The notes beneath the pieces are model-generated. The model did no database searches. It was not told where the DNA came from and saw nothing but the letters and a program-made list of their open reading frames with translations. 64,000 bases of DNA from a virus, in the IMG/VR virus record IMGVR_UViG_3300042731_002679, positions 4,304 to 68,303 of that record; one strand, given 5' to 3'. Each line of letters opens with the position of its first letter. Position 1 is the first letter of the stretch. The position numbers were made by a program, and so were the translations under genes. Shown here one piece after another: positions 4,236-31,585 of the stretch.

Positions 4236-5007
4236 GATCCCCCCCCTTCTCCCAGTCGAACGTGCTGGGGTCGAAGTCTTCCATGCGCTCGGTCCACACA
4301 TAGGGACCGAGCTTCTTGAAGTGGCTGAAATGAGTGAACCCGCCCGTGCCGATGTCGCTGGCGTTGTCCATTTGCCACGCGGCGCCCGGGACGAGGCAGT
4401 AGCAGTTCAGGGCGTCCCCGATGCGAATGAAGTTGTGGTCGATGCCGTCCGAGTTGGGCAGCATTTCGTCCAGGGCGTCCAGTACCTTGCGGGCGTTGCG
4501 GCCGTTGACGAAGTAAGCGTAGGTTCCCCACTCCCCGAACACCCGCAGGATGTGCGGATCGTCTGTCGGTTCCACGTCGCGACCGCGATGGTGCCACGCC
4601 GCGCAGTCCGGGTTTGCGTACCACACCCCGGGCACATGAAACGTCGCCCCGAGGTAGAGCACGTCCCAGTCCCAGGTGAGGTGTTCTTCGAGGTACGCCA
4701 GCCGGTCCTGCAAGTCCTCGCAGAAGCACACGTCGTCCTCGAAGACTCCCACGATCCGATCCGAGCCAACGGCCGTGCGGATCACATGGGTCTGCGACTG
4801 GTAGCAGCCGATCGCTCCGGGCGTCCTGGCGCGGATACGGGCCACCTTCTCTTCCGGCCCCGGCCACTCTTCCGGCAGGAACGCCTCAAAACGATCAACC
4901 GGCAAGTTAGCGCGCGCGAACTGTTGATTGGCGTGGGCCATGCGATCCGTGCGGTGGGCCAGGTTGATTACCCAGTTATCCAGCCGGAAGCGGTCGAAGT
5001 GGCTCAT
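4204..5007 (-). CDS. glycosyltransferase family 25-like
   Basis: WVINLAHRTDR, GAIGCYQS, FEDD, WDVLYLG, TYAY motifs. Confidence 0.85.
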   Translation of the reverse strand: MSHFDRFRLDNWVINLAHRTDRMAHANQQFARANLPVDRFEAFLPEEWPGPEEKVARIRARTPGAIGCYQSQTHVIRTAVGSDRIVGVFEDDVCFCEDLQDRLAYLEEHLTWDWDVLYLGATFHVPGVWYANPDCAAWHHRGRDVEPTDDPHILRVFGEWGTYAYFVNGRNARKVLDALDEMLPNSDGIDHNFIRIGDALNCYCLVPGAAWQMDNASDIGTGGFTHFSHFKKLGPYVWTERMEDFDPSTFDWEKGGDRGDQTPQPVR

Positions 5008-21466: not shown

Positions 21467-21532
21467 CCTTCCAAGAAGCCCGAGAACGCCGAACCTTTCC
21501 GCCGACGCCGGCAAAATGGTAGGACCGCCAAG

Positions 21533-21724
21533 ATGCACCTTAGAACCATCACAGCATGGGCTCTGATAGCCGCCGGCTTCGCCTGCATCCTGGCTGGCGG
21601 TGCGTATCACCTCTTCTGCCGCCCCGAATGGACGCAGGCCCAGGCGTTCTGGAACCTGTGGTACTTGTGGCTCGCCGGCGTGACCCTGACGATCTTCGGT
21701 TCGTCCATGCAAAGCCGCGGGTAG
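21533..21724 (+). CDS. small two-helix membrane protein
   Basis: AGGA SD, two hydrophobic segments. Confidence 0.55.
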   Translation: MHLRTITAWALIAAGFACILAGGAYHLFCRPEWTQAQAFWNLWYLWLAGVTLTIFGSSMQSRG

Positions 21725-21810
21725 ATCGGCCTGAACCCCCAAAAAAGTTTCTTCTCCCTACCAGACAACGACTTATGACCCAAAATGGCCCACTTCTCAC
21801 GGTTTTCTGA

Positions 21811-21840
21811 TTGACACGAACCCCGAATCGGGGCTATCTT
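21811..21840 (+). promoter_or_regulatory. possible promoter
   Basis: TTGACA-N18-TATCTT with CCCCGAATCGGGG near-palindrome in the spacer. Confidence 0.4.
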
Positions 21841-21904
21841 GCCCGTCGTTGGGCCACTGGAAAGGATAAACAGCGATTTTCACGGCCCCGAGCCGATCGA
21901 AAAT

Positions 21905-21951
21905 AGCCCGCCTCCTTTTCAGTGGCATGAAATTCGGCGGGCTTCTTTTTC
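21905..21951 (+). terminator. terminator-like hairpin
   Basis: AGCCCGCC/GGCGGGCT stem followed by TCTTTTT. Confidence 0.55.
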
Positions 21952-22049
21952 GCGCCCCTCCACGAAAAGAAGCCCAGCAACGACGCAAGGGTATTTATCG
22001 TGGAGGGGAGTCTCCGTGCGGATCACAACCAACACCAGCCACCAGAAGC

Positions 22050-22091
22050 AAAGCCCCACGGCCTCAGACGAGACCGTAGGGCTTTCTTTCT
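22050..22091 (+). terminator. terminator-like hairpin
   Basis: AAAGCCC-CACGG/CCGT-AGGGCTTT then CTTTCT. Confidence 0.5.
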
Positions 22092-22119
22092 GCGCCGGCA
22101 CCAACCCCTGACCAACACC

Positions 22120-22446
22120 ATGCCACGAGACGACTGGGCAAAAGCCCGAAGAAAAGACGCCTCCAAGCAAGCAACCGCAGACGCGGCCAAGAAACGTCAT
22201 GGCCAACGCCACGCCGCAAGGAAAAGAATCACCAAGTCTCTCGGACCACACACCAAACTCTGGTTCGGGAAACACAAAGGCCGCCCACTTTCCCAAATCC
22301 CCCGGCCTTACCTGGCTTGGCTGTCTCAACAGCCGGCCGCCTCTTCCTGGCGACTACAAATCCTCCAGAACTTCCTGCTGGAGACCTATCTCCCACAAAC
22401 CTCCGGACAACCGGAAGAAAGGAACTCAAGAGTAAGCCCCTGTTAG
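22120..22446 (+). CDS. DUF3820-like protein
   Basis: WFGKHKGRPLSQIPRPYLAWL motif. Confidence 0.65.
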   Translation: MPRDDWAKARRKDASKQATADAAKKRHGQRHAARKRITKSLGPHTKLWFGKHKGRPLSQIPRPYLAWLSQQPAASSWRLQILQNFLLETYLPQTSGQPEERNSRVSPC

Positions 22447-23416
22447 GCAAACCCAGGCCAGCCGCAGGTTCCCCCAAACGAACAAACGGGAACCAAACAG
22501 TCGCCAAACCCTCTCGCGACCGGCCAAAGGGTCAAAAAGGCTCCGAGGAGCCTACCGCCAAGGCGAAAGCACAGCAACAATCCCCGATCCAACCAAGTGT
22601 GCGGAGTCGGTTTACCGAAATCCGGGGAACCTGGCCGCACAAAACCAAAGTCTCGGCAAGTCGCCCCACGATTGGCCAACGCCGAGCCGTCGCGAAGGAA
22701 CCTGCCAACAAAGGCAGATTGGGGAGGTCAAAAAAACCTCCGTTTGGCTGCGACGATAAATAACACGCCGGGGAATAGGAAGGGAACCTCTGCGCGCCCG
22801 AACCACCTACACCTCCAAAAACCCACCTAAACCCTGCCGTGTTACCAACTTCCACTTCCGTAATATCCTACTCCAGGCAATCTGGGTAAGATGGGTAGCA
22901 CCCTGGGAAATGCTCAAAAAGTCCGGGGAGGTAGCTACAATCTGTGACTTGGGGTGGGAAAAAGGGTGCTGCCCCGGGTGGGTTGGGCACGGGTTTGGCC
23001 GATACGCCTAGACGTTTCGATCCGACGCGGCCGGAATCCGGTGGCGCGTTCGCACGGAACTAATTTTCGCAGCGTTTCCTGTCTAAAACGTAAGCCGACT
23101 CACAGCCTAGACTTAGCCCAACCACTAATGGGGCGAATGGCCCAACAAGCCTACTTCTGAGGGGCATGATAACCTGGTTCGGTTCTGCCGGTTGTCCCGA
23201 ATCCCAAGTGTCCACATAACGTGTAGTCGCGTAACGGAGGGGTTTACTTGACGTAACCGATTGTTGGGATATACTTGAGTGTATGACTTCGGGCGACTTG
23301 CCCGTGGTCCGTTCTTTGACAACCTATCCGAGTTTTCTGCCGATCGGCCGGCGAGTTTCAAGTTGAAACTGGTTGTTCTCGCCGATCGGTTCACCCGTAG
23401 CAAAGGGAGAGAGAGA

Positions 23417-24379
23417 ATGAAAGCCGTAAGCGCGATGGTCGCGGAGTTCGGCAACTTGTCGCGGGCGAAGCAAGAGAAGGGTATCGTGGACCGGGAGTTG
23501 TCGAAGGACAAGGCCGACCGGAACCATACCCGCGAACAGTCGGCGGCTGTCTATGCTGCCCTCTTGCACGCGACGCGGAACCCGGCAGAACAGGGTGATT
23601 CGGCGGCTTTGTGTCGTCAGTCCCTATTCGCCCGACTGGCCGACAAGACTAAGAAGGACGGAAAAACCTTCTATACCTATGCAAAGCAAGGCTTCGCTAT
23701 GGTGAAGGTTCCCCTTCTTGACCGCGACGGGATGACGGCGCAGCTACGCGAAGCTTGCCGGTTGCTGGAGTTCGACGACAAGGACTCCGACAATCCGGTG
23801 AGAGAGTGCAAGGCCGGCGCGTTGTCGAAGCTTTCCGGGTTCTTGGCCGACTGTGAGTCGGACAAGGACAAGGACGGTTCCGCGGCAGAGTTCCGCAAGA
23901 TTGCGGAGACTGTCAAGCCGCGTGCGGGTCGTGAGCCGCGGACGGGTGGAACGGAAGCCCCGAAGGATTCGCCGAATCCGGTTGAGGGCGAACCCGGCTT
24001 GACTTCCCGCCCTGAAGGATTCGCCACGGACCCGTTTATCCGCATGCTGGCGAAAATGCGGGGCGATGCTGCCACCGATACCGTTTACAAGCTCTCCGAA
24101 GTGGTGGCAGGGCATGAGGAAGTGGAAGCGCTTATCATGTCGCAACTGGCAGCTATCCGTGATAGCTGGAGTACTTCGGTGGAGGGATTCGCCAAGTGGG
24201 AGTGGTTTGTGGATGCGGTCACGCATGAATGTTCCACACACTTCACCGAAGCGCGTCTGGAAGCGCTGCAGGAAGCCGAAGCCGCCAGCAAGGGTGAGGC
24301 GAAGCGCAAGGCCGAGAAGCTCCGCAAGGGCGGAGCTACTCCCCAGGAAGTCGAAGAAGCGCTTGCGGGCGCGGCATAG
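23417..24379 (+). CDS. hypothetical protein, first gene of the early array
   Basis: Long ORF; ATG 23417 follows CCCGTAGCAAAGGGAG motif. Confidence 0.75.
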   Translation: MKAVSAMVAEFGNLSRAKQEKGIVDRELSKDKADRNHTREQSAAVYAALLHATRNPAEQGDSAALCRQSLFARLADKTKKDGKTFYTYAKQGFAMVKVPLLDRDGMTAQLREACRLLEFDDKDSDNPVRECKAGALSKLSGFLADCESDKDKDGSAAEFRKIAETVKPRAGREPRTGGTEAPKDSPNPVEGEPGLTSRPEGFATDPFIRMLAKMRGDAATDTVYKLSEVVAGHEEVEALIMSQLAAIRDSWSTSVEGFAKWEWFVDAVTHECSTHFTEARLEALQEAEAASKGEAKRKAEKLRKGGATPQEVEEALAGAA

Positions 24380-24385
24380 TCAACC

Positions 24386-24420
24386 TACCCCCTGCCCTAC
24401 CTTGGGCAGGGGGTTTGCTT
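24386..24420 (+). terminator. intrinsic terminator
   Basis: ACCCCCTGCCC/GGGCAGGGGGT stem then TTGCTT. Confidence 0.6.
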
Positions 24421-24480
24421 ATGCGCTTTTCTGGAGTGTGCAAGCAAACCCCCTGTATTCTCGATTATTGTCAATTCTGT

Positions 24481-24508
24481 TTGACATACCCCCCTGCCGT
24501 GGTAGAAT
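24481..24508 (+). promoter_or_regulatory. strong sigma70-like early promoter
   Basis: TTGACA-N16-TAGAAT. Confidence 0.75.
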
Positions 24509-24679
24509 AGGGGTATCGTCGAACATGAGTGAGGCGGTTGTGAATTTTCAAGCGGCGCGCGGTTGTCCCGTCTGCCGCTTGCTCCCTTGGCAGCGATGCT
24601 AAGGTTTTCTTGTGCGCCGTGTTCGCGGGTTTGCGAACGGTCAAGCGGCGCGCGGCCCCGTAGCTTGGAGGGTGGAATC

Positions 24680-24940
24680 ATGGCAGTTCTCAGACTGGTG
24701 CGGGTGTATTTCCGGCCGGAGGATCATCCGGCGGTGCGCCCGGGGATCATCGCCAAGACCTTGCGCGAATTTCCAGCGGCCGATGGTCTGGAGTTGCACG
24801 ACGACTCGGACGTTGTGCGGATCATTGACCGGAAGGGTCGCGCGGTTTCCTGCGATGGCGAGCAGTATGTCGCGGTAATCAACCGGCGGCACGAATCGGA
24901 CGGTCGCGGGTGTTTCGTGCCCGCGGCGCTGTACGGGTGA
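24680..24940 (+). CDS. hypothetical protein
   Basis: Preceded by motif and GGAGG. Confidence 0.7.
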   Translation: MAVLRLVRVYFRPEDHPAVRPGIIAKTLREFPAADGLELHDDSDVVRIIDRKGRAVSCDGEQYVAVINRRHESDGRGCFVPAALYG

Positions 24941-24951
24941 AGGGAGGCGTC

Positions 24952-25179
24952 ATGGACTTTCCGATCTACAACCAGATTGTCGAATTGCCCGATGGGCGCT
25001 GGCAGGCGTTTTTGCAGTCGGCGTCGGGCGCAGTCCACCAGAAGCGCTTCCGGTTGCTGGAAGAGGCGCAAGCGTGGGCGAAACACCGGGCTTTGACCGC
25101 TCTGCCGCGGGAAAACTGGGTGAGCGAGATCATTTCCCTGGACGCCGCGCTCTTCTGCCGCGGCTACCTGATCTTCTAG
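24952..25179 (+). CDS. hypothetical protein
   Basis: GGGAGG SD. Confidence 0.65.
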   Translation: MDFPIYNQIVELPDGRWQAFLQSASGAVHQKRFRLLEEAQAWAKHRALTALPRENWVSEIISLDAALFCRGYLIF

Positions 25180-25243
25180 CGCGGCCCGCGTGTGGCCGCG
25201 TTTCTGTTTCCTGTCCCCCGTAGCTCTATTGGAGGGTGTAGCG

Positions 25244-25429
25244 ATGAAACGCTGGAATGTGATGCAGTTTCGGGCTTCGGCGATGTCCTGGTTCTGGGTG
25301 GATCAGGTCGAAGCCCGCAGCCCGCGTGAAGCGGCGAGGATCGCCCGCGCGAAGCATCCGGGCCTGGGGCTGCTCGTGAAAGTGGTGGCGACCGATCTGG
25401 TGGCCGAGCCGGTTCGGGTGGCTGGCTGA
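25244..25429 (+). CDS. hypothetical protein
   Basis: Motif plus GGAGG; VEARSPREAA. Confidence 0.65.
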   Translation: MKRWNVMQFRASAMSWFWVDQVEARSPREAARIARAKHPGLGLLVKVVATDLVAEPVRVAG

Positions 25430-25529
25430 CGACCTGGCCGTGAGGGGCTCGGCATCGCGCTGAGCCCCGATCGGGCTGGCCGTTGGTGCGGCTGGTTGCT
25501 GTTTTCCTGTAGCCCTGGAGGATGAAGTT

Positions 25530-25712
25530 ATGGCGAAATTGGACCTGGACGAAATCATGGCGGCGTGCGAATCGGGCGACAACATGGGCTTTTGCACGGC
25601 CTGCGGGGCCGAAGCCTACGGCGTGGAACCGGACGCCCGCCGTTACGAGTGCGAAGAGTGCGGCGCCCGGGCGGTGTACGGGGCCGAAGAGTTGCTGATC
25701 GGTTGCATCTGA
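25530..25712 (+). CDS. small zinc-ribbon protein
   Basis: GFCTACG...VEPDA..YECEECG..AVYGAE. Confidence 0.8.
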   Translation: MAKLDLDEIMAACESGDNMGFCTACGAEAYGVEPDARRYECEECGARAVYGAEELLIGCI

Positions 25713-25827
25713 CGTGCGACCCGGCCGTGAGGGCTTCGCTTTGCCGAACGGTGAAGCGGAGCCCGACCGGGCGGGCCGGCGGCGTGCTGGCCCTCGGTGT
25801 TTCCCGTAGCAAGGGAGGATGTTCTCT

Positions 25828-26166
25828 ATGACACGCAAGGCCAAGGTTCTCTACGTGTTCCTGGCCGACGATGAGTGGGGCAACTTCGCGATGGAGCAGG
25901 TTGCCCAGGTCGCGTTCCACAAGTATCCGTGGCTGGACGCCGTGCATGTGTACAAGCACGGCGGCTGGTGGCTGATGTGGGACCGCGATCTAAACATCGT
26001 CGGTACGGCGAACGACATGGCCCGGATGAGCGAAGCCGCGAACGAGTTCTGGCGTGCCTATCCCGACTACGAGATTGTGGCGACCGTTCGCCGCGATCAG
26101 CCTGGTTGGGAGTGGCCCGAACTGAACCGTCGAGCGGAGCGCGAACGAGAGGGGGTGGCCGCATGA
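25828..26166 (+). CDS. hypothetical protein
   Basis: Motif plus GGAGG. Confidence 0.7.
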   Translation: MTRKAKVLYVFLADDEWGNFAMEQVAQVAFHKYPWLDAVHVYKHGGWWLMWDRDLNIVGTANDMARMSEAANEFWRAYPDYEIVATVRRDQPGWEWPELNRRAEREREGVAA

Positions 26167-26378
26167 GAGTCGCCCTCGAAGTGAACGTAATGCGGCTTCG
26201 GTTCGACCCGGTGATGAATCGCCCGACGCTGTTCGTGTGCCTCACCCTCATCTGGTGGACGTTCTGGTTCCAGTGGTGGGACACGGAGCGATGCCGGGAC
26301 AAGCGGATTCTTTGGCGCAGTTGGGACCGGCTCATGTGCGCCACTGGAGGGGTGCATGTTCATCGAAGCAGCGTATGA
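26163..26378 (+). CDS. Trp-rich hypothetical protein
   Basis: ATGA overlap with upstream gene. Confidence 0.45.
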   Translation: MRVALEVNVMRLRFDPVMNRPTLFVCLTLIWWTFWFQWWDTERCRDKRILWRSWDRLMCATGGVHVHRSSV

Positions 26379-26592
26379 ACGACCGGACCCGCGCGCCGAG
26401 TGCGCTGCCCGCATGGCCCGCAACGGGTCGCATCTGGGCAAGCCGGCGAACAACGAGTCGGCCGATTACTACTGCGTGGACGGGAAGGTGTGGCTGATTA
26501 CGCCGGAGCGATCCGTGCTGTTGGGCTGCTACTTCCTGTTTATGAACGAAGTGCGGCTCGGGATTCGAGCCGTCTCGCCGCCTGGAGACTGA
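26356..26592 (+). CDS. hypothetical protein
   Basis: GGAGG SD. Confidence 0.6.
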   Translation: MFIEAAYERPDPRAECAARMARNGSHLGKPANNESADYYCVDGKVWLITPERSVLLGCYFLFMNEVRLGIRAVSPPGD

Positions 26593-26695
26593 GACCTGCG
26601 CTGCCGACCCGGCGTGCCGCTCCGGTCCCCCGACCGAGGCGGCGCAGCGGGCCGATGGGCGGTTCGCGTGTCACCTGTAGCGAAAGGATGAATCC

Positions 26696-26911
26696 ATGCA
26701 AGCGTACCTCAAGCCCGGCAGCGGGTACTGGGACATCACGGTTCTCGGTATCGGCGGGCACTTCCGGCGGGTCGGCGAGAACCGGATGCCGGTTCACGAC
26801 ATCGAGGTGATCCCGAAGTGGCGCGGCGTAGACCGCAAGGCGATCACCGACGACGGCCGAAAGGTGGCTTTCCAGTCTTACCTGCTGGAGGAGGTTGCCG
26901 ATGAGCATTGA
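26696..26911 (+). CDS. hypothetical protein
   Basis: Motif plus AAGGA. Confidence 0.7.
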   Translation: MQAYLKPGSGYWDITVLGIGGHFRRVGENRMPVHDIEVIPKWRGVDRKAITDDGRKVAFQSYLLEEVADEH

Positions 26912-27143
26912 CTGGGAGCAGATCGAACAGGAGGACCGGCTGTGGCCGTGGTTGGCCGATGGGTCGATGGGCGATGAAACCTGCGATCCATCGTTCGACG
27001 ACCTCTACGGCGATCCCGAGCCTTACTACTTCTGCGATTCGTGCGACTGCGGCTTGTCGGACGATGAAGCGGAGGGCGACAAGTGCCCCGAGTGCGGGGC
27101 GGTGTTCGACAACGAGAACCCGCTGGTGACGAACGGAGGATGA
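26901..27143 (+). CDS. acidic zinc-ribbon protein
   Basis: GGAGGT SD; CDSC...CPECG. Confidence 0.65.
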   Translation: MSIDWEQIEQEDRLWPWLADGSMGDETCDPSFDDLYGDPEPYYFCDSCDCGLSDDEAEGDKCPECGAVFDNENPLVTNGG

Positions 27144-27144
27144 A

Positions 27145-27312
27145 ATGATCTACTTTTGCATCCGTGGAGTTCGATGCAATCCCAAAACCCGATGCAACTG
27201 GATTCCGGCCAGTTGCCTGGAGCGATCTGCGCGATGGACTCACTACGCCCATTCCTACAGGGCGTGGACCTATGCCCCATGCGAAACGACACGAGCGGCG
27301 ATCTTCGGATAG
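27145..27312 (+). CDS. small hypothetical protein (55 aa)
   Basis: Read manually: GGAGG SD, ATG 27145 to TAG immediately before a GACCCGG element. Confidence 0.5.
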   Translation: MIYFCIRGVRCNPKTRCNWIPASCLERSARWTHYAHSYRAWTYAPCETTRAAIFG

Positions 27313-27436
27313 CCGACCCGGCCCCGAGGCGTCTTAGAACGATCTAAGGCGCCGAGGGAGCGGGCCGACCCGCGAACCGGGCCACCGGGTTGACAGGTGG
27401 CAACGATCGAACGCCCTATGGGCAGGAGACGCAGCG

Positions 27437-27742
27437 ATGGCACGGTATCGGATGGACGACGGCAGCGTGGTGGACACCGACAGGGCCACGCAGTCGTGGG
27501 AGGAGGAGACCGATTGGGACGGTAGGAACCACATCAGCCGGGCGACCGGCTCGCAGTGGGACCACGAGACCCTGTATCGGTCCCGTAAGGGGCGGTACTA
27601 CGTCGAGCACACCTCCCAGTGGCAGGGCAGCCGGCCGCACGTCGAGTGGCTCAGCCCCGAAGCGGCGGCCCGGTGGCTGCTGCTGATGGACGAGGAACTG
27701 CCGGAGGACCTGGCGCAGTACGCCGACGAGATCATCGAGTAG
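27437..27742 (+). CDS. hypothetical phage protein
   Basis: AGGAG SD; ETLYRSRKGRYY...SPEAAARW. Confidence 0.75.
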   Translation: MARYRMDDGSVVDTDRATQSWEEETDWDGRNHISRATGSQWDHETLYRSRKGRYYVEHTSQWQGSRPHVEWLSPEAAARWLLLMDEELPEDLAQYADEIIE

Positions 27743-27835
27743 CGCGACCCGGCCCCGACCCCTCCGGTGTGAGCGGAGGGGAAGGGAGCGGGCCGACTGA
27801 GAGCCCGCGTTCCTGTAGCAAGGGAGGATGAGCGA

Positions 27836-28594
27836 ATGGAAACGAAGACGCGGCGGGTCCGCATCGTGCAAGACTGCGATGCCGACAGCCCGCGGACCTG
27901 GGACAACATGGGCGTCATGGCCTGCTGGCACAGCCGGTACACCCTTGGCGACGAACAGCCGAAGGTGGACTCCGGCGAGTGGCTGCGCGACCTGGCTGTC
28001 GAAGCCTGCCCCCGGCTCGGTGAAATCATCGAGTATTGGGAGAACGAGGGCTGGGACTGGTTGCAGTCGAAGCTCGGCACGTACAGTGAGGCCGACCAAG
28101 CGATCATTCCCCACCTCGACGACCTCATCGGTCGTGTGCTGGTCAAGCATTTCGTGATCCTGCCGCTGTACCTGTACGATCACAGTGGCATCACGATGAA
28201 CGTGGGCGGGTTTTCCTGCCCGTGGGACAGTGGCCAAGTGGGCTACATCGTGTGTTCGCTCTCGAAAGCCCTGGAGTGCTGGCTTCTCTCGGAGGGCGAT
28301 TGGGATACCGAGGTCGAGTACACCGATGGGCCGGTCACTCTGCGGGAAGGGACCACGCGCAACCTCAAGTGCGAAGTGGAGACCTACGCCCAGTTCCTCG
28401 AAGGCAACGTGTACGGGTTCATCGTGGAAGAGTGCGAAGAGTGCGACTGCTGCGGTCACGCCGAGTGGGAGCACGTCGATTCGTGCTTCGGCTTCTACGG
28501 CTACGACCCCGAAGAGAACGGCATGGCGGATCATCTCGACGATGATCTGCTGGAGATGGCCAAGGACGCGGAACCCGAGTATCGGAGATACTGA
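27836..28594 (+). CDS. acidic hypothetical phage protein
   Basis: SPRTWDN, LYLYDHSGIT, CPWDSGQVG, DSCFGFYG. Confidence 0.8.
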   Translation: METKTRRVRIVQDCDADSPRTWDNMGVMACWHSRYTLGDEQPKVDSGEWLRDLAVEACPRLGEIIEYWENEGWDWLQSKLGTYSEADQAIIPHLDDLIGRVLVKHFVILPLYLYDHSGITMNVGGFSCPWDSGQVGYIVCSLSKALECWLLSEGDWDTEVEYTDGPVTLREGTTRNLKCEVETYAQFLEGNVYGFIVEECEECDCCGHAEWEHVDSCFGFYGYDPEENGMADHLDDDLLEMAKDAEPEYRRY

Positions 28595-28597
28595 CCC

Positions 28598-28993
28598 ATG
28601 AAGCAGAACCCACCCAACGCCCGGTTCTGGGTGTACCTCAACGGCAGCCCGGTCAAGCTGACGCTTCGGCCGGGCGCGGAGTTGCACCACTACTGGGGTG
28701 AGCCGAACGACGAGGGCGGCTGGTCGAGCGCGGCGCATCGCTGGGAGTACGTGGTCAACGACCCGGACTTCCCGCCGCATGTGCTGCGAGAGTGTACCAT
28801 TGACGGCCGCGATTGCGACGGTCGTTTGACGCAACACTACGACTCGGTATGCTCGGTGGAAGACCTGGCGGCCCACGTTGTCGAGGGGGCCGAGTACAAG
28901 GACTTTCACGACGGGCGGGAGATTTGCTACCCGAAGTGGGAGCGGACGACCGCTTGGAACCGCGACGAGTTCGCGGAAGCGATGGGGTACTAA
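28598..28993 (+). CDS. hypothetical protein
   Basis: RDCDG motif, C-terminal RDEFAEAMGY. Confidence 0.75.
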   Translation: MKQNPPNARFWVYLNGSPVKLTLRPGAELHHYWGEPNDEGGWSSAAHRWEYVVNDPDFPPHVLRECTIDGRDCDGRLTQHYDSVCSVEDLAAHVVEGAEYKDFHDGREICYPKWERTTAWNRDEFAEAMGY

Positions 28994-29033
28994 CGGGCCG
29001 CGTGGCCCTTTCTTTCCTGTAGCATGAGGACCA

Positions 29034-29222
29034 ATGCAAATGGACAACCAATGGTGTGTGCTGGTCAAGAACGACCCTATCGTGTCGGTCGGCCAGTCTG
29101 TCGCCGGTCCCTTTGACTCGGCTGGCAAAGCAGAAGGGTGGATCGCGGAGGACTTGGACATCAACAATGATGTGCGGGACAACTACCTCATTCTGCCTTT
29201 CTTCGATACGCGGGACGACTGA
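29034..29222 (+). CDS. small hypothetical protein
   Basis: Motif plus GAGGA; GPFDS...A..W. Confidence 0.65.
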   Translation: MQMDNQWCVLVKNDPIVSVGQSVAGPFDSAGKAEGWIAEDLDINNDVRDNYLILPFFDTRDD

Positions 29223-29260
29223 TCGTTACTACTTTTCCTGTAGCATGAGGAGGATGAAGA

Positions 29261-29854
29261 ATGAGCAAAGTGACCGAGGCGATTGATCGGCTCGCAGAAA
29301 CCCCGAGCCGACCGGCCGACGAGTTCTGGACTCACGAGCAGGCCCAGGCTTCGATCAACGAGTTCTGGGAGGTGCGAACCGACAAGTCGATGAGCGAGGA
29401 TTCGCGGGCCGAGCGGTGCGCGGAGATCATCGCTAGCTCGAAGCCGATTCGGAACGTGTCAGAGAACGACAGCGGCAACACGGTGGTCCGCTCGAACGCC
29501 GATTCGCTGGGGGTATCCCACGAGCGGTACGTGTTCGACTTCGACGACGACTTTCGAGCGGCCGGGTGGTTGCAGTTCGACACGAACCAGGACGCCTGGT
29601 ACTTCGGCGTGTGGGTCAATCCCAAGACCTTTCAGACATTGACCTACGCGGAGGGCGACGTGACGCTGGTATTGTGCCGCGATGCCGAGCACTACAACGC
29701 CGAGATTCGTGATGCGTGCGATTTCTACGGCGAGGGGTTTCAATTCTTGGAGTGCAACATGGAAGGTCTGCAAAGCGTGCTGCTGGGAACGCATGACCGA
29801 GACGCTTCGGTTGTGGCCCATCGTCAGCAGCGGGAGAAGTTCCTGGTTTCGTAA
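29261..29854 (+). CDS. hypothetical protein
   Basis: Motif plus GGAGG; WLQFDTNQDAWYFGVWVNP...YAEGD. Confidence 0.75.
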   Translation: MSKVTEAIDRLAETPSRPADEFWTHEQAQASINEFWEVRTDKSMSEDSRAERCAEIIASSKPIRNVSENDSGNTVVRSNADSLGVSHERYVFDFDDDFRAAGWLQFDTNQDAWYFGVWVNPKTFQTLTYAEGDVTLVLCRDAEHYNAEIRDACDFYGEGFQFLECNMEGLQSVLLGTHDRDASVVAHRQQREKFLVS

Positions 29855-29937
29855 CACCCCACCACGAACCCGCCCTCGCAAGGGGGCGGGCTGTTGTGCG
29901 GTGTTTCTTCTCACCTCGTAATACGAAGGAGGATGTG

Positions 29938-30312
29938 ATGCACAGACAAGCCGTTAAGCGATTGCGAGACCAGATTCAAGCCATGTTTGACGCGGCCGAC
30001 CTTGGGGGCTACCACGTTACTGTTGGCAACGCAACGTATTGCGACAACAACGCGACGTTCAAGGTGGAGTTCGCCGAGAAGGCCGCCGATGGGACTGTGT
30101 TGACAAAGGACGCGATCGCCTTCAAGGAGTTGTGTAGCCTGCACGGGCTGTCCGCAGACGACCTGGGGAGGGACTTCACCTGCCAGGGAAGGACCTTCAA
30201 GATTGCCGGTCTGAAACCTCGGGCGACGAAACGCCCGATTCTTTGCGACGGCGACGACGGCAAGCAATACAGCTTTCCGGCAAAGGCCGTCATCATGGGT
30301 CTTAAGAAATGA
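29938..30312 (+). CDS. hypothetical protein
   Basis: AAGGAGG SD. Confidence 0.75.
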   Translation: MHRQAVKRLRDQIQAMFDAADLGGYHVTVGNATYCDNNATFKVEFAEKAADGTVLTKDAIAFKELCSLHGLSADDLGRDFTCQGRTFKIAGLKPRATKRPILCDGDDGKQYSFPAKAVIMGLKK

Positions 30313-30941
30313 AATCCATTCTCAGCCTATGCGACCTGTCGGGCTCGTGGAGCTTGCCATACGTCGAGGCGGGCTACGAGGTCGTGCAGGTGGATGTGCT
30401 GCATCCTTCAGGGTGCAGGAAGGTGGCCCCCAACGTGTGGCGTGTCGGGTGTGATCTTCTCGACGTTACGCAACAGACATGGTATCGGGGTTTACCATTT
30501 CATGGAGTTCTCGCAGCGCCGCCGTGTACTTGCTTCTGTCGGCCGGCGGCTCGATGGTGGGCACGGCAGGATGCCGAGGGGAAAACGGATCGAGACGTGG
30601 CGCTTATCCGTCGATGCCTCGACTTGTGCCAAACTGCCACCGCATGGTGGGCACTGGAAAATCCACCGGGTCGGGCACCGAAACTCATACCGGAACTAGG
30701 TCGTCCAGCCTGGCAATTTCACCCGTGGCACTACGGAGACCCGTGGCGCAAGCAGACCTACATTTGGGGCACGGCAGTCAAACCTCCCCCGACCGTAACT
30801 ACTGAACCGCCGCGGCTAACGTACCGGACGCCTAATGGGAGACTGCAAGGACGCATTTCCAGAATGTCCTCTTCATGGCAAAACCAACGCAGCGAGACTC
30901 CGGCAGGATTCGCCCGCGCGTTTTGTCTTGCAAACCCTTAG
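30309..30941 (+). CDS. short phage-type DNA cytosine-C5 methyltransferase
   Basis: ILSLCD.SG.WS (motif I variant), AAPPCT (catalytic PC), WALENP, RS.TP.GFA. Confidence 0.8.
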   Translation: MKSILSLCDLSGSWSLPYVEAGYEVVQVDVLHPSGCRKVAPNVWRVGCDLLDVTQQTWYRGLPFHGVLAAPPCTCFCRPAARWWARQDAEGKTDRDVALIRRCLDLCQTATAWWALENPPGRAPKLIPELGRPAWQFHPWHYGDPWRKQTYIWGTAVKPPPTVTTEPPRLTYRTPNGRLQGRISRMSSSWQNQRSETPAGFARAFCLANP

Positions 30942-30970
30942 TCCCTAACCACAGCAAGGAGACCTTGCCC

Positions 30971-31585
30971 ATGAGTGAAACCACAGTGACCCTTCCCAGT
31001 CACGCCGAGATCGAAGCCCTGATCGAAGCGGCCGGCGATCGCATCAACGGACTGACGTTCGTTGAAGAGTATGTGATCGAAGACTACCCGATCAGCTTCC
31101 GCGACCGCGGCCGATGCTACATGGCCGTGGAGTTCAAGTCGAAGAAGGGCTGGCGTACCGTGAAGCGGACGACCAACCGGCGCGGGACGTGGTGCAAGCC
31201 GAAGTCCTGCACCTACGACGGGCTGCCGATCGCCGTCGTCACCGGGGAGGACATCGAGAAGGAAGCCGCCTGGCTGCGTGTCAGCAGCCACGGCCAAGCG
31301 GCGATCTACCTGCAAGCGGCCAACGGGGACTGCGAGGACGTGATCCTGCGGCGCCCCGATGGGATTCCTGGCATGCAGCCCCGGCGCGAGCCGCATCGGT
31401 ATTCGATGAAGGTCGAGCGGTTTACGTTCGGCGACGACCACAAGGAGTCCGAGGTCGAACACCACGAGTTCCCGGCCGACCCGCCGGAAGTGTGCGATGC
31501 CTACGACGTGTGGGTCGATGGCCTCACGCGGCTGGTCAAGCTGGTGAAGCAGAAGATGCCGCAGGCGGTGTCGAGCACCGCCTGA
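30971..31585 (+). CDS. hypothetical protein
   Basis: AAGGAG SD; DYP...WCKPK..TY. Confidence 0.75.
   Translation: MSETTVTLPSHAEIEALIEAAGDRINGLTFVEEYVIEDYPISFRDRGRCYMAVEFKSKKGWRTVKRTTNRRGTWCKPKSCTYDGLPIAVVTGEDIEKEAAWLRVSSHGQAAIYLQAANGDCEDVILRRPDGIPGMQPRREPHRYSMKVERFTFGDDHKESEVEHHEFPADPPEVCDAYDVWVDGLTRLVKLVKQKMPQAVSSTA

Follow-up and report, generated by a model that had tools for sequence, protein, structure and literature searches.

What kind of element separates the small genes in one gene run of a phage genome, and at what level does it act? The window analysed here comprises 64,000 bases (positions 4,304 to 68,303) of the 68,303-base single-contig virus record IMGVR_UViG_3300042731_002679 and carries, between about 24680 and 30941 on its + strand, a co-directional run of small genes, hardly any of which matches a family. 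Five junctions in this run hold copies of a structured element, starting at 25431, 25718, 26606, 27315 and 27746. A sequence-only reading had described them as switch-like elements between early genes and had offered three roles for them: an attenuator, a processing element or a recombination unit. The five copies belong to a family of intercistronic hairpins, referred to here as three-tier hairpins, which co-vary and recur in other phages. By sequence and predicted fold the element is an uncatalogued RNA-like motif, and its general kind, repeated intercistronic hairpins in phage operons, is known. Our explanation, held tentatively, is that it serves as an intercistronic RNA processing, stabilising or insulating signal, by analogy with RNase III sites in the early region of phage T7.

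Architecture and covariation of the three-tier hairpin

Folded alone, the element forms a rod. An unpaired GA is followed by a 4-bp basal stem, CCCG/CGGG, a 2x2 internal loop (5' GC opposite 3' AG), a 3-bp middle stem, a second 2x2 loop, and an apical stem of 6–15 bp that is capped by a terminal loop of 3–8 nt. The 5' arm covers 17–26 positions (median 19), or about two helical turns, and the elements of the window measure 48–60 nt within a family range of 42–60 nt. The exact canonical dot-bracket structure is found in 24 of 31 copies, and the basal stem is kept in the remaining seven. The conserved base reads GA-CCCG-GC ... AG-CGGG-CC, and the top of the rod varies in sequence yet remains paired. 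Two subtypes can be told apart, one typical of the window (GGCC-CC-GA ... (G/A)A-GGG-AG-CGGGCC-GAC) and one of a second phage, G001 (GGCC-NC-UA-G ... C-CU-GNG-AG-CGGGCC). They differ in the second loop, which is a tandem G·A motif in window-type copies and is lacking from one window copy, W3, and from the metagenomic copy L510c. The sequence-only reading had laid out the element as a hairpin with conserved pairing. The hairpin stands, and the five apical stems quoted for it are correct by sequence and by fold; as a refinement, folding and covariation place the basal pairing at CCCG/CGGG, followed by the 2x2 loop and the 3-bp middle stem, rather than simply at CGGCC/GGCCG.

The five window copies (W1–W5) all lie on the + strand at the positions first read from the sequence, right after stop codons, which end 1, 5, 13, 2 and 3 nt 5' of W1 to W5, respectively. 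W1 (25431..25481, after gene 25244-25429), recovered by pattern and fold, is a variant with a basal stem CCUG/CUGG that contains a U·U mismatch and with inner loops of 1x1 and 3x3. W2 (25718..25777, after gene 25530-25712), recovered by pattern, fold and covariance model, has the CCCG/CGGG basal stem, a middle stem CCG/CGG that is shifted by one position and an apical stem of 15 bp. W3 (26606..26653, after gene 26356-26592) was found by pattern and fold and missed by the covariance-model search; the basal stem and the GC/AG loop are present, and the upper stem, having no second internal loop, is continuous. Pattern, fold and model agree on W4 (27315..27366, between genes 27145-27312 and 27437-27742) and W5 (27746..27794, between genes 27437-27742 and 27836-28594), both of canonical architecture, W4 with tiers of 4, 3 and 11 bp separated by the 2x2 loops, the second of which is GA/GA, and W5 with an apical stem of 8 bp. 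The pattern GACCYGGC-N28-52-GSKGGCC occurs five times in the window against 0.19 expected, a number that none of 100 shuffles reaches; GACCYGGC by itself occurs 20 times against 10.3 expected. All five whole intergenic regions form more stable folds than shuffled sequences do (z = -1.97, -3.25, -2.02, -3.15 and -2.40).

Covariation, on which the sequence-only reading had staked its structure, is extensive. A covariance model, R1, was built from 11 copies of phage G001 and the five window copies. In this training set alone (alignment A1, 16 sequences), 96.4% of the cells are paired and 12 of 14 pairs have changed on both sides; among 12 distinct sequences from outside the training set, aligned by fitting to the model (A2), the figures are 99.4% and 9 of 14. 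In an alignment made with MAFFT and not fitted to the structure (A3; 31 sequences, 30 distinct), 97.9% of the cells are paired and 11 of 13 pairs have changed on both sides (84 cells), and sliding the 3' partners lowers the pairing to 22–51%. Each of the three alignments was set against 500 shuffles, and in every case 0 of 500 match it. The near-invariant base also has compensating variants (CCCA/UGGG, UCCG/CGGA and CCUA/UGGG), and the middle stem occurs as CCC/GGG, CAC/GUG, CGC/GCG, CCG/CGG, GCC/GGC and GGC/GCC.

Comparison of orthologous sites is cleaner than counts among paralogous copies. W4 and the copy of phage record L341 both lie upstream of homologues of gene 27437-27742 (61% protein identity), and only the base is common to them. 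Copy h of G001 and a copy of phage G007 both lie 5' of an AAA ATPase of about 630 aa (~40% identity); they have the base and a CGC/GCG middle stem in common, and their apical stems are wholly different, still paired. Taken with the alignments, these sequence comparisons indicate that the structure is under selection.

Flanking sequence adds a further regularity. In window-type copies from several contigs, for example W4 and those of L336, L339 and L341, the hexamer GCCGAC occurs on both sides of the hairpin as a direct repeat, and antiparallel pairing of both hexamers would add four Watson-Crick pairs and two A·C oppositions to the helix.

Occurrence, orientation and company of the family

Pattern scans of the viral_contigs, metagenome and genome_contigs collections are reported for the matches listed, and the family size and host range given here are lower bounds. 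Among the viral-contig matches listed, most are single chance matches, alongside G001 (locus L212), a complete phage of 86,416 bases with terminal repeats that carries 11 copies between small genes in the last 10 kb of its minus strand. G001 is probably an actinobacterial phage, judging from a terminase nearest (~35% identity) to those of Streptomyces, Arthrobacter and Microbacterium phages, a G+C content of 68% and collagen-like repeats in its tail fibre. Between the window phage (G000) and G001, tblastn finds no protein similarity at E<=1e-4 and noise only at E<=1. The sequence-only reading had pointed to phage metagenomes as a place to search with a covariance model. Run with R1, that search, together with further scans, brings the contigs with the same architecture, besides the window's own, to at least 13 from phages or metagenomes; with G001 these include the phage records G007 (108 kb, three copies), G008, G009/L339, G010/L341, G011/L336 and L342, and the metagenome contigs L483, L514 (two copies), L518, L510 (three copies in 1.4 kb), L520 and L528. 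The element-bearing phages span 54–68% G+C; L336 lies at 54%, against 83% for its element, which therefore stands out from its surroundings.

Several G001 copies have CAUCAC(C) in their apical loops, and the same letters recur in other nearby hairpins (L212, minus strand, around 10870, 8800, 3160, 1700 and 1100). Copies f and k of G001 have a common further 14-nt upstream extension, and a 5' half-copy (GCCGACCCGG) lies directly after a stop codon, 11 nt 5' of copy h (L212, minus strand, ~8050-8030). The half-copy and the extension look, from their sequences, like scars of duplication or recombination.

Several further searches did not encounter the element. Four Planctomycetota metagenome-assembled genomes and one Streptomyces genome yielded no hairpin-type copy, the pattern matches in them being non-hairpin and the model having scored 150 of many thousands of first-look candidates. 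With R1, none of the 80 genome_contigs loci listed scores above 30 bits, and no copy is present in the whole records of phiC31 and of Streptomyces phage Jay2Jay, the latter also searched over its first 20 kb with filters off. Searches by blastn with the region and with a 61-nt element against 50,697 phage records returned chance-level matches only, no close cultured relative was found through the ATPases of G001 and G007 or the protein of gene 27836-28594, and full-text searching of the literature found no description of such a motif or stem-loop. Rfam 15 has no match in the window at gathering scores and, at E<=10, two chance-level matches only, BjrC174 (20.6 bits against a threshold of 45) and sR52. 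The family copies in 10 + 9 other loci do not match either, the sole match there being a separate hammerhead in L514. The earlier statement that no known riboswitch is recognisable is thus borne out at gathering score. A riboswitch as such was set aside: conservation is confined to the helix base, and the alternative hairpin discussed below is absent in L336, L518 and L520.

Every tabulated copy is intercistronic and runs in the direction of the flanking open reading frames (ORFs), in agreement with the original description of structured elements between small co-directional genes. In 21 of the 28 copies for which a script found the upstream stop codon, that stop lies between 2 nt within the element and 6 nt ahead of it, which leaves W3 and six G001 copies as exceptions; in three copies missed by the script, reading of the sequence places it 4, 2 and 2 nt away. 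The next start codon follows 22–85 nt downstream, behind a strong ribosome-binding site. Given the known footprint of the ribosome, termination on the upstream gene would be expected to melt the basal stem at the least.

Features of the stems distinguish the two strands. G·U pairs outnumber A·C oppositions by 22 to 10, a G·U pair recurrently closes the apical stem (9 of 30 sequences), and the 13 tetraloops include three GNRA and two UNCG loops when read as the sense strand, whereas the antisense strand has neither kind. From the orientation, the G·U excess and the tetraloops we favour action at the RNA level over a role as single-stranded DNA.

A ribozyme occurs in the company of the hairpins on the 1,134-base contig L514, which has three non-overlapping gene junctions and a fourth gene pair that overlaps as ATGA. 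The first junction holds a type II hammerhead ribozyme (RF02276; L514:110-176, + strand; 49.1 bits against a gathering score of 37), and each of the remaining two holds a three-tier hairpin; ribozyme and hairpins all begin 1 nt past the stop of the gene before them. All three elements are followed by similar leaders and ribosome-binding sites. By sequence, then, a self-cleaving RNA and the three-tier hairpin occupy the same slot in L514, although their folds differ and the hairpin has no catalytic core. Rfam found no other ribozyme in G000, G001 or the sampled part of G007, and a search for relatives of L514 gave one weak match.

Candidate functions of the hairpin

The coliphage T7 has RNase III processing sites (R0.3, R0.5, R1, R1.1 and R1.3) between its early genes, and these are the model for a tentative explanation of the three-tier hairpin. 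In this explanation the hairpins would punctuate polycistronic operons of small phage genes at the level of the mRNA. The conserved base would be recognised and cut by a factor that reads double-stranded RNA, most simply RNase III of the host or a comparable endoribonuclease. A hairpin protecting the 3' end would then remain on the upstream cistron, and the cistron downstream would be shielded from its neighbour, in the manner of the T7 sites. In the window phage the 3' strand may in addition pair downstream into a weak terminator-like or ribosome-binding-site-masking hairpin, and the fold could be switched by a ribosome halted at the neighbouring stop codon, a local addition that the family as a whole would not share. 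We infer that the element works as RNA and that it is cleaved or protective, and the identity of its reader is likewise inferred. The two-turn length and the intercistronic location fit a T7-type RNase III site, and the presence of the element in phages with no detectable shared protein fits a reader that is host-encoded or universal. Of the three roles first offered, processing has gained the most support, from the two-turn helix and from the hammerhead in the same slot of the related contig L514. T7 and the window phage alike have a phage operon, transcribed by the host, whose cistrons are separated by several irregular hairpins that are about two turns long and contain internal loops; in both, the sequence near the loops is conserved, the upper stem varies, and the hairpin would remain on the upstream 3' end. 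The two sets have no sequence relationship, however, and cleavage of the three-tier hairpin is putative; its base is far more conserved than that of the T7 sites, it is common to phages without shared proteins, and it mostly abuts a stop codon.

Several observations weigh against this explanation. RNase III is not known to require a base conserved in this way, and the reader could be a different one. A look-up of sequencing runs listed a single DNA run, possibly from the source sample, and no RNA run. The association with a hammerhead rests on a single contig, L514, and the covariation counts are not independent events, since the copies within one phage are paralogues. The antisense strand on average folds better than the sense strand (-36.7 against -33.7 kcal/mol, n=29, p=0.0013), because the conserved mismatches (C·A in the first loop, A·C at the foot) become G·U there. 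Close relatives, L001 and L464-L467, are without the element: the junctions of L001, the nearest relative obtained through gene 27836-28594 (59% identity), are compact and hold no copy, and four homologues of gene 27437-27742 (45–63% identity) have other hairpins or none upstream. Conversely, the 42-nt elements of L336 and L518 are identical within flanks that have no detectable similarity, and the elements of L339 and L520 agree at 38 of 42 positions in unrelated flanks. Patchy relatives and identical copies in unrelated flanks also fit a mobile or recombining DNA element. Judged from these sequences the element is long-lived at some sites and has been exchanged between contexts, which recombination within the element, or mobility of its own, would explain; where L510 and L528 are compared, the breakpoint lies inside the upstream ORF.

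The strands of the hairpin can also pair differently. As the sequence-only reading had seen, the 3' basal strand can open a second hairpin at all five window copies, and the two folds are mutually exclusive in each. The alternative hairpin of W1 (25474..25497, +; fold and terminator scan) reuses the 3' strand of the element, is followed by GCTGTTTTCC and is the only one that scores as terminator-like. That of W2 (25773..25793, +), with the arms GGGCCGGC and GCUGGCCC, appears in the centroid structure, and that of W3 (26648..26666, +; CGGGCCG/CGGUUCG with two G·U pairs) was read by eye and in a leader-pairing test. The hairpin of W4 (27360..27373, +; GCGGG/CCCGC) is seen in sequence and fold, and that of W5 (27788..27808, +; GCGGGC/GCCCGC), seen in sequence and in the leader-pairing test, is followed by GUUCCUGUAGC. 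Four of the five stand before the letters GTAGC, as first described, the exception being the hairpin at 27360. Over 29 copies the 3' strand pairs with the leader beyond shuffled leaders (mean z -0.85, t-test p = 0.001), single copies reaching <=0.05 in 5 of 29 cases and 0.2 in 16 of 29, and with the 5' strand kept unpaired the ribosome-binding site is predicted to be only slightly more exposed (0.48 against 0.42; p = 0.03, n = 29). In L336, L518 and L520 the leaders are A/C-rich and offer the 3' strand no downstream partner, and the switch hairpin is therefore not a family feature. The label "switch-like" has weak support, from an overall enrichment of pairing, and fails in these three contigs, and the modelled alternative fold is a real tendency in some phages, including the window phage, that does not define the family.

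An attenuator controlled by the ribosome or by a factor is a possible though unlikely alternative to an RNA processing signal. The hairpin would be an antiterminator or anti-sequestor competing with the downstream hairpin, and a ribosome on the stop codon would melt the 5' strand and leave the 3' strand to form the downstream hairpin, with termination or altered exposure of the ribosome-binding site as the result. The mutually exclusive folds, the terminator-like alternative of W1 with its GCTGTTTTCC, the nearby stops at which a ribosome would have to open the base, the overall leader pairing and the gain in exposure speak for such a mechanism. Yet only 5 of 29 copies pass 0.05 singly, three contigs have no pairing partner, the exposure effect is small, G001 copies have no U-tract, and the invariant CGGG gives no covariation while paralogues inflate the statistics. 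RAT and other antiterminator hairpins, and leader-peptide attenuators such as that of trp, offer the same arrangement of an upstream hairpin that shares a strand with a downstream terminator-like one, where a ribosome at a nearby stop could decide between them (W1 is the clearest case), but here the alternative hairpin is not conserved in the family and no regulatory protein or leader peptide is evident. Plain constitutive termination without need of a U-tract, which we consider very improbable, would account for stable GC-rich hairpins directly after genes, and a 1995 study reportedly described terminators without poly-U tails in the early region of phiC31; phiC31 itself, however, has no copy. 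None of 16 terminator-like sites in 21500-31500 coincides with a three-tier hairpin, which has no T-tract (the G001 copies, lacking a U-tract, continue with CGCUACCUGAGAGGAG), the conserved base and loops would be left unexplained, and five to eleven full stops in one operon would silence the downstream genes. The sequence-only reading had allowed that its elements might behave as plain terminators, and at no three-tier hairpin is a canonical intrinsic terminator found. It seems to us improbable that the hairpin merely docks a non-cutting RNA-binding protein with sequence specificity, whether as a translational operator or as an antitermination site of nut/boxB-like or RAT-like type at which RNA polymerase is reloaded. 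A conserved base with a free top suits a protein that reads the foot of the helix, and the tandem G·A loop of window-type copies and the A-, C- and U-rich linear motifs after some copies also speak for docking, but the two best-sampled phages have no detectable common protein, so that the binder would have to be the host's, no candidate binder appears among the scanned ORFs, and five to eleven sites per operon are unlike nut sites. That the hairpin is a new small self-cleaving RNA is the least credible proposal, for although it shares the slot of the L514 hammerhead and would be independent of host and phage proteins, an active site would find little to build on in a rod with two 2x2 loops, and the second of these loops is not conserved between subtypes and is missing from W3 and L510c.

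A DNA-level element, with any effects on RNA being secondary, is rather unlikely. It would be a small mobile palindrome (REP- or MITE-like, moved as a single-stranded hairpin) or a sequence for cassette swapping by recombination (PeSL- or attC-like), and the patchy occurrence among relatives, the identical and near-identical elements in unrelated flanks, the more stable antisense strand with conserved mismatches of A·C type, the half-copy upstream of copy h and the RecE/RecT-like recombination proteins of the window phage are in keeping with it. Set against these are an orientation that is always that of the genes, apical stems that are unrelated within one phage, unlike copy-and-paste repeats, and orthologous sites that are kept over 40–61% protein identity with compensatory replacement. 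Integron attC sites were rejected, as the core sites RYYYAAC/GTTRRRY are absent from the sequence and no integrase is present in the scanned ORFs, and REP, REPIN and MITE elements likewise, with no hairpin-type copy in five cellular genomes or the 80 listed genome_contigs loci and no transposase in the scanned ORFs; among these ORFs no HUH/Y1 transposase, RAYT or nuclease family was seen either. REP/BIME palindromes are GC-rich, imperfect and placed after stops inside operons, where they stabilise the upstream mRNA and affect translation near the stop, and in being GC-rich imperfect palindromes just 3' of stop codons within operons the two resemble each other. REPs, however, are chromosomal, abundant, present in both orientations and similar along their whole length, whereas three-tier hairpins are all in phages and all sense, with unrelated tops. 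The PeSLs of T4-type phages are promoter-early stem-loops, composite terminator/promoter cassettes (PMC4122927), and they too are short repeated motifs bordering small accessory genes, with the same motif between unrelated sequences (PMC4122927). The four promoter-like sites in 21500-31500 of the window (21811, 23248, 24481 and 28826) do not fall at any copy, which removes the defining promoter half of a PeSL, and the hairpin is without a T-tract; the analogy first drawn with PeSLs fails in this respect, and a role in gene shuffling may still be entertained for elements that are identical in unrelated flanks.

Beyond the RNA processing signal that we tentatively prefer, a more far-reaching proposal can be formulated, to which we give little credence. 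The hairpin would be a portable cistron-punctuation module, interchangeable with hammerheads and active as a compact RNA signal in unrelated phages whose hosts differ, that either cuts itself or has its base read by a widely conserved bacterial enzyme with a new sequence specificity, and the terminating ribosome, by opening the hairpin, would time the processing.

The gene run in the window phage and the meaning of its hairpins

The window record is linear according to IMG/VR and 74% complete by the CheckV estimate. Among its proteins are ParB-like ones, RecE/RecT-like recombination proteins, a replication initiator, a DnaB-like helicase and RusA; others are several DNA methyltransferases, a helicase, a head-tail adaptor and virion proteins. 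The operon that carries the five copies is probably driven by a strong sigma-70-like promoter (24481..24508, +; TTGACA-16-TAGAAT, 11/12 with a TG extension), which is a consensus match only and which has a hairpin with a T-tract just 5' of it (24387-24414, from the terminator and promoter scan). The earlier designation of these genes as "early" is reasonable on the strength of this promoter and the gene content, on which it depends. A plain hairpin with a T-rich tract (25178..25202, +; fold and terminator scan) occupies a junction that has no three-tier hairpin, and a similar one lies at 28995-29008.

Upstream of the run, the interval 21740-23400 is gene-poor and A/C-rich, with two sigma-70-like promoter matches (21811 and 23248) and at least one small basic ORF (~22121-22440, +) that the crude gene caller skipped. 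Downstream of W5, gene 27836-28594 (+) encodes a 252-aa protein of phrog_6186 (unknown function) with relatives in 199 viral contigs; in cultured phages, such as Bacillus phage vB_BcoS-136, Sphingobium phage Lacusarx and Ruegeria phages, these relatives are often encoded within a few kb of a genome end.

The GTAGC letters belong to a motif, YYYGTAGC-N3-8-GGAGG(ATGA), that precedes nine start codons on the + strand of the window, with the G of GTAGC at 23397, 24660, 25220, 25509, 25806, 26677, 27815, 29019 and 29240. These nine start-associated sites, all in 23.4-29.3 kb, are nine of the 12 such sites on that strand genome-wide, and each of 80 loci fetched via gene 27836-28594 has at most one site per strand. 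The pyrimidine run 5' of GTAGC can pair with the ribosome-binding site, which would place GUAGC in the loop of a masking hairpin, and the motif is also found at junctions without a three-tier hairpin. Its reading as a -10 box was set aside: a start 6–8 nt downstream would land in or after the ribosome-binding site, and the frame from the first ATG looks non-coding.

Early and accessory phage operons are long strings of tiny genes, and only in a few model phages is it understood how the messages from them are partitioned, protected and kept in balance. An element found in phages of 54–68% G+C without common proteins points to a general host reader or to self-sufficiency. Should the three-tier hairpin prove to process or insulate messages, it would have its natural place beside the parts with which synthetic biology decouples cistrons (ribozymes, RNase III sites and Csy4 hairpins), and it would be a useful marker for annotating phage operons in metagenomes. 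The hammerhead that shares its slot in L514 gives a testable lead on the role of intergenic ribozymes in phages.

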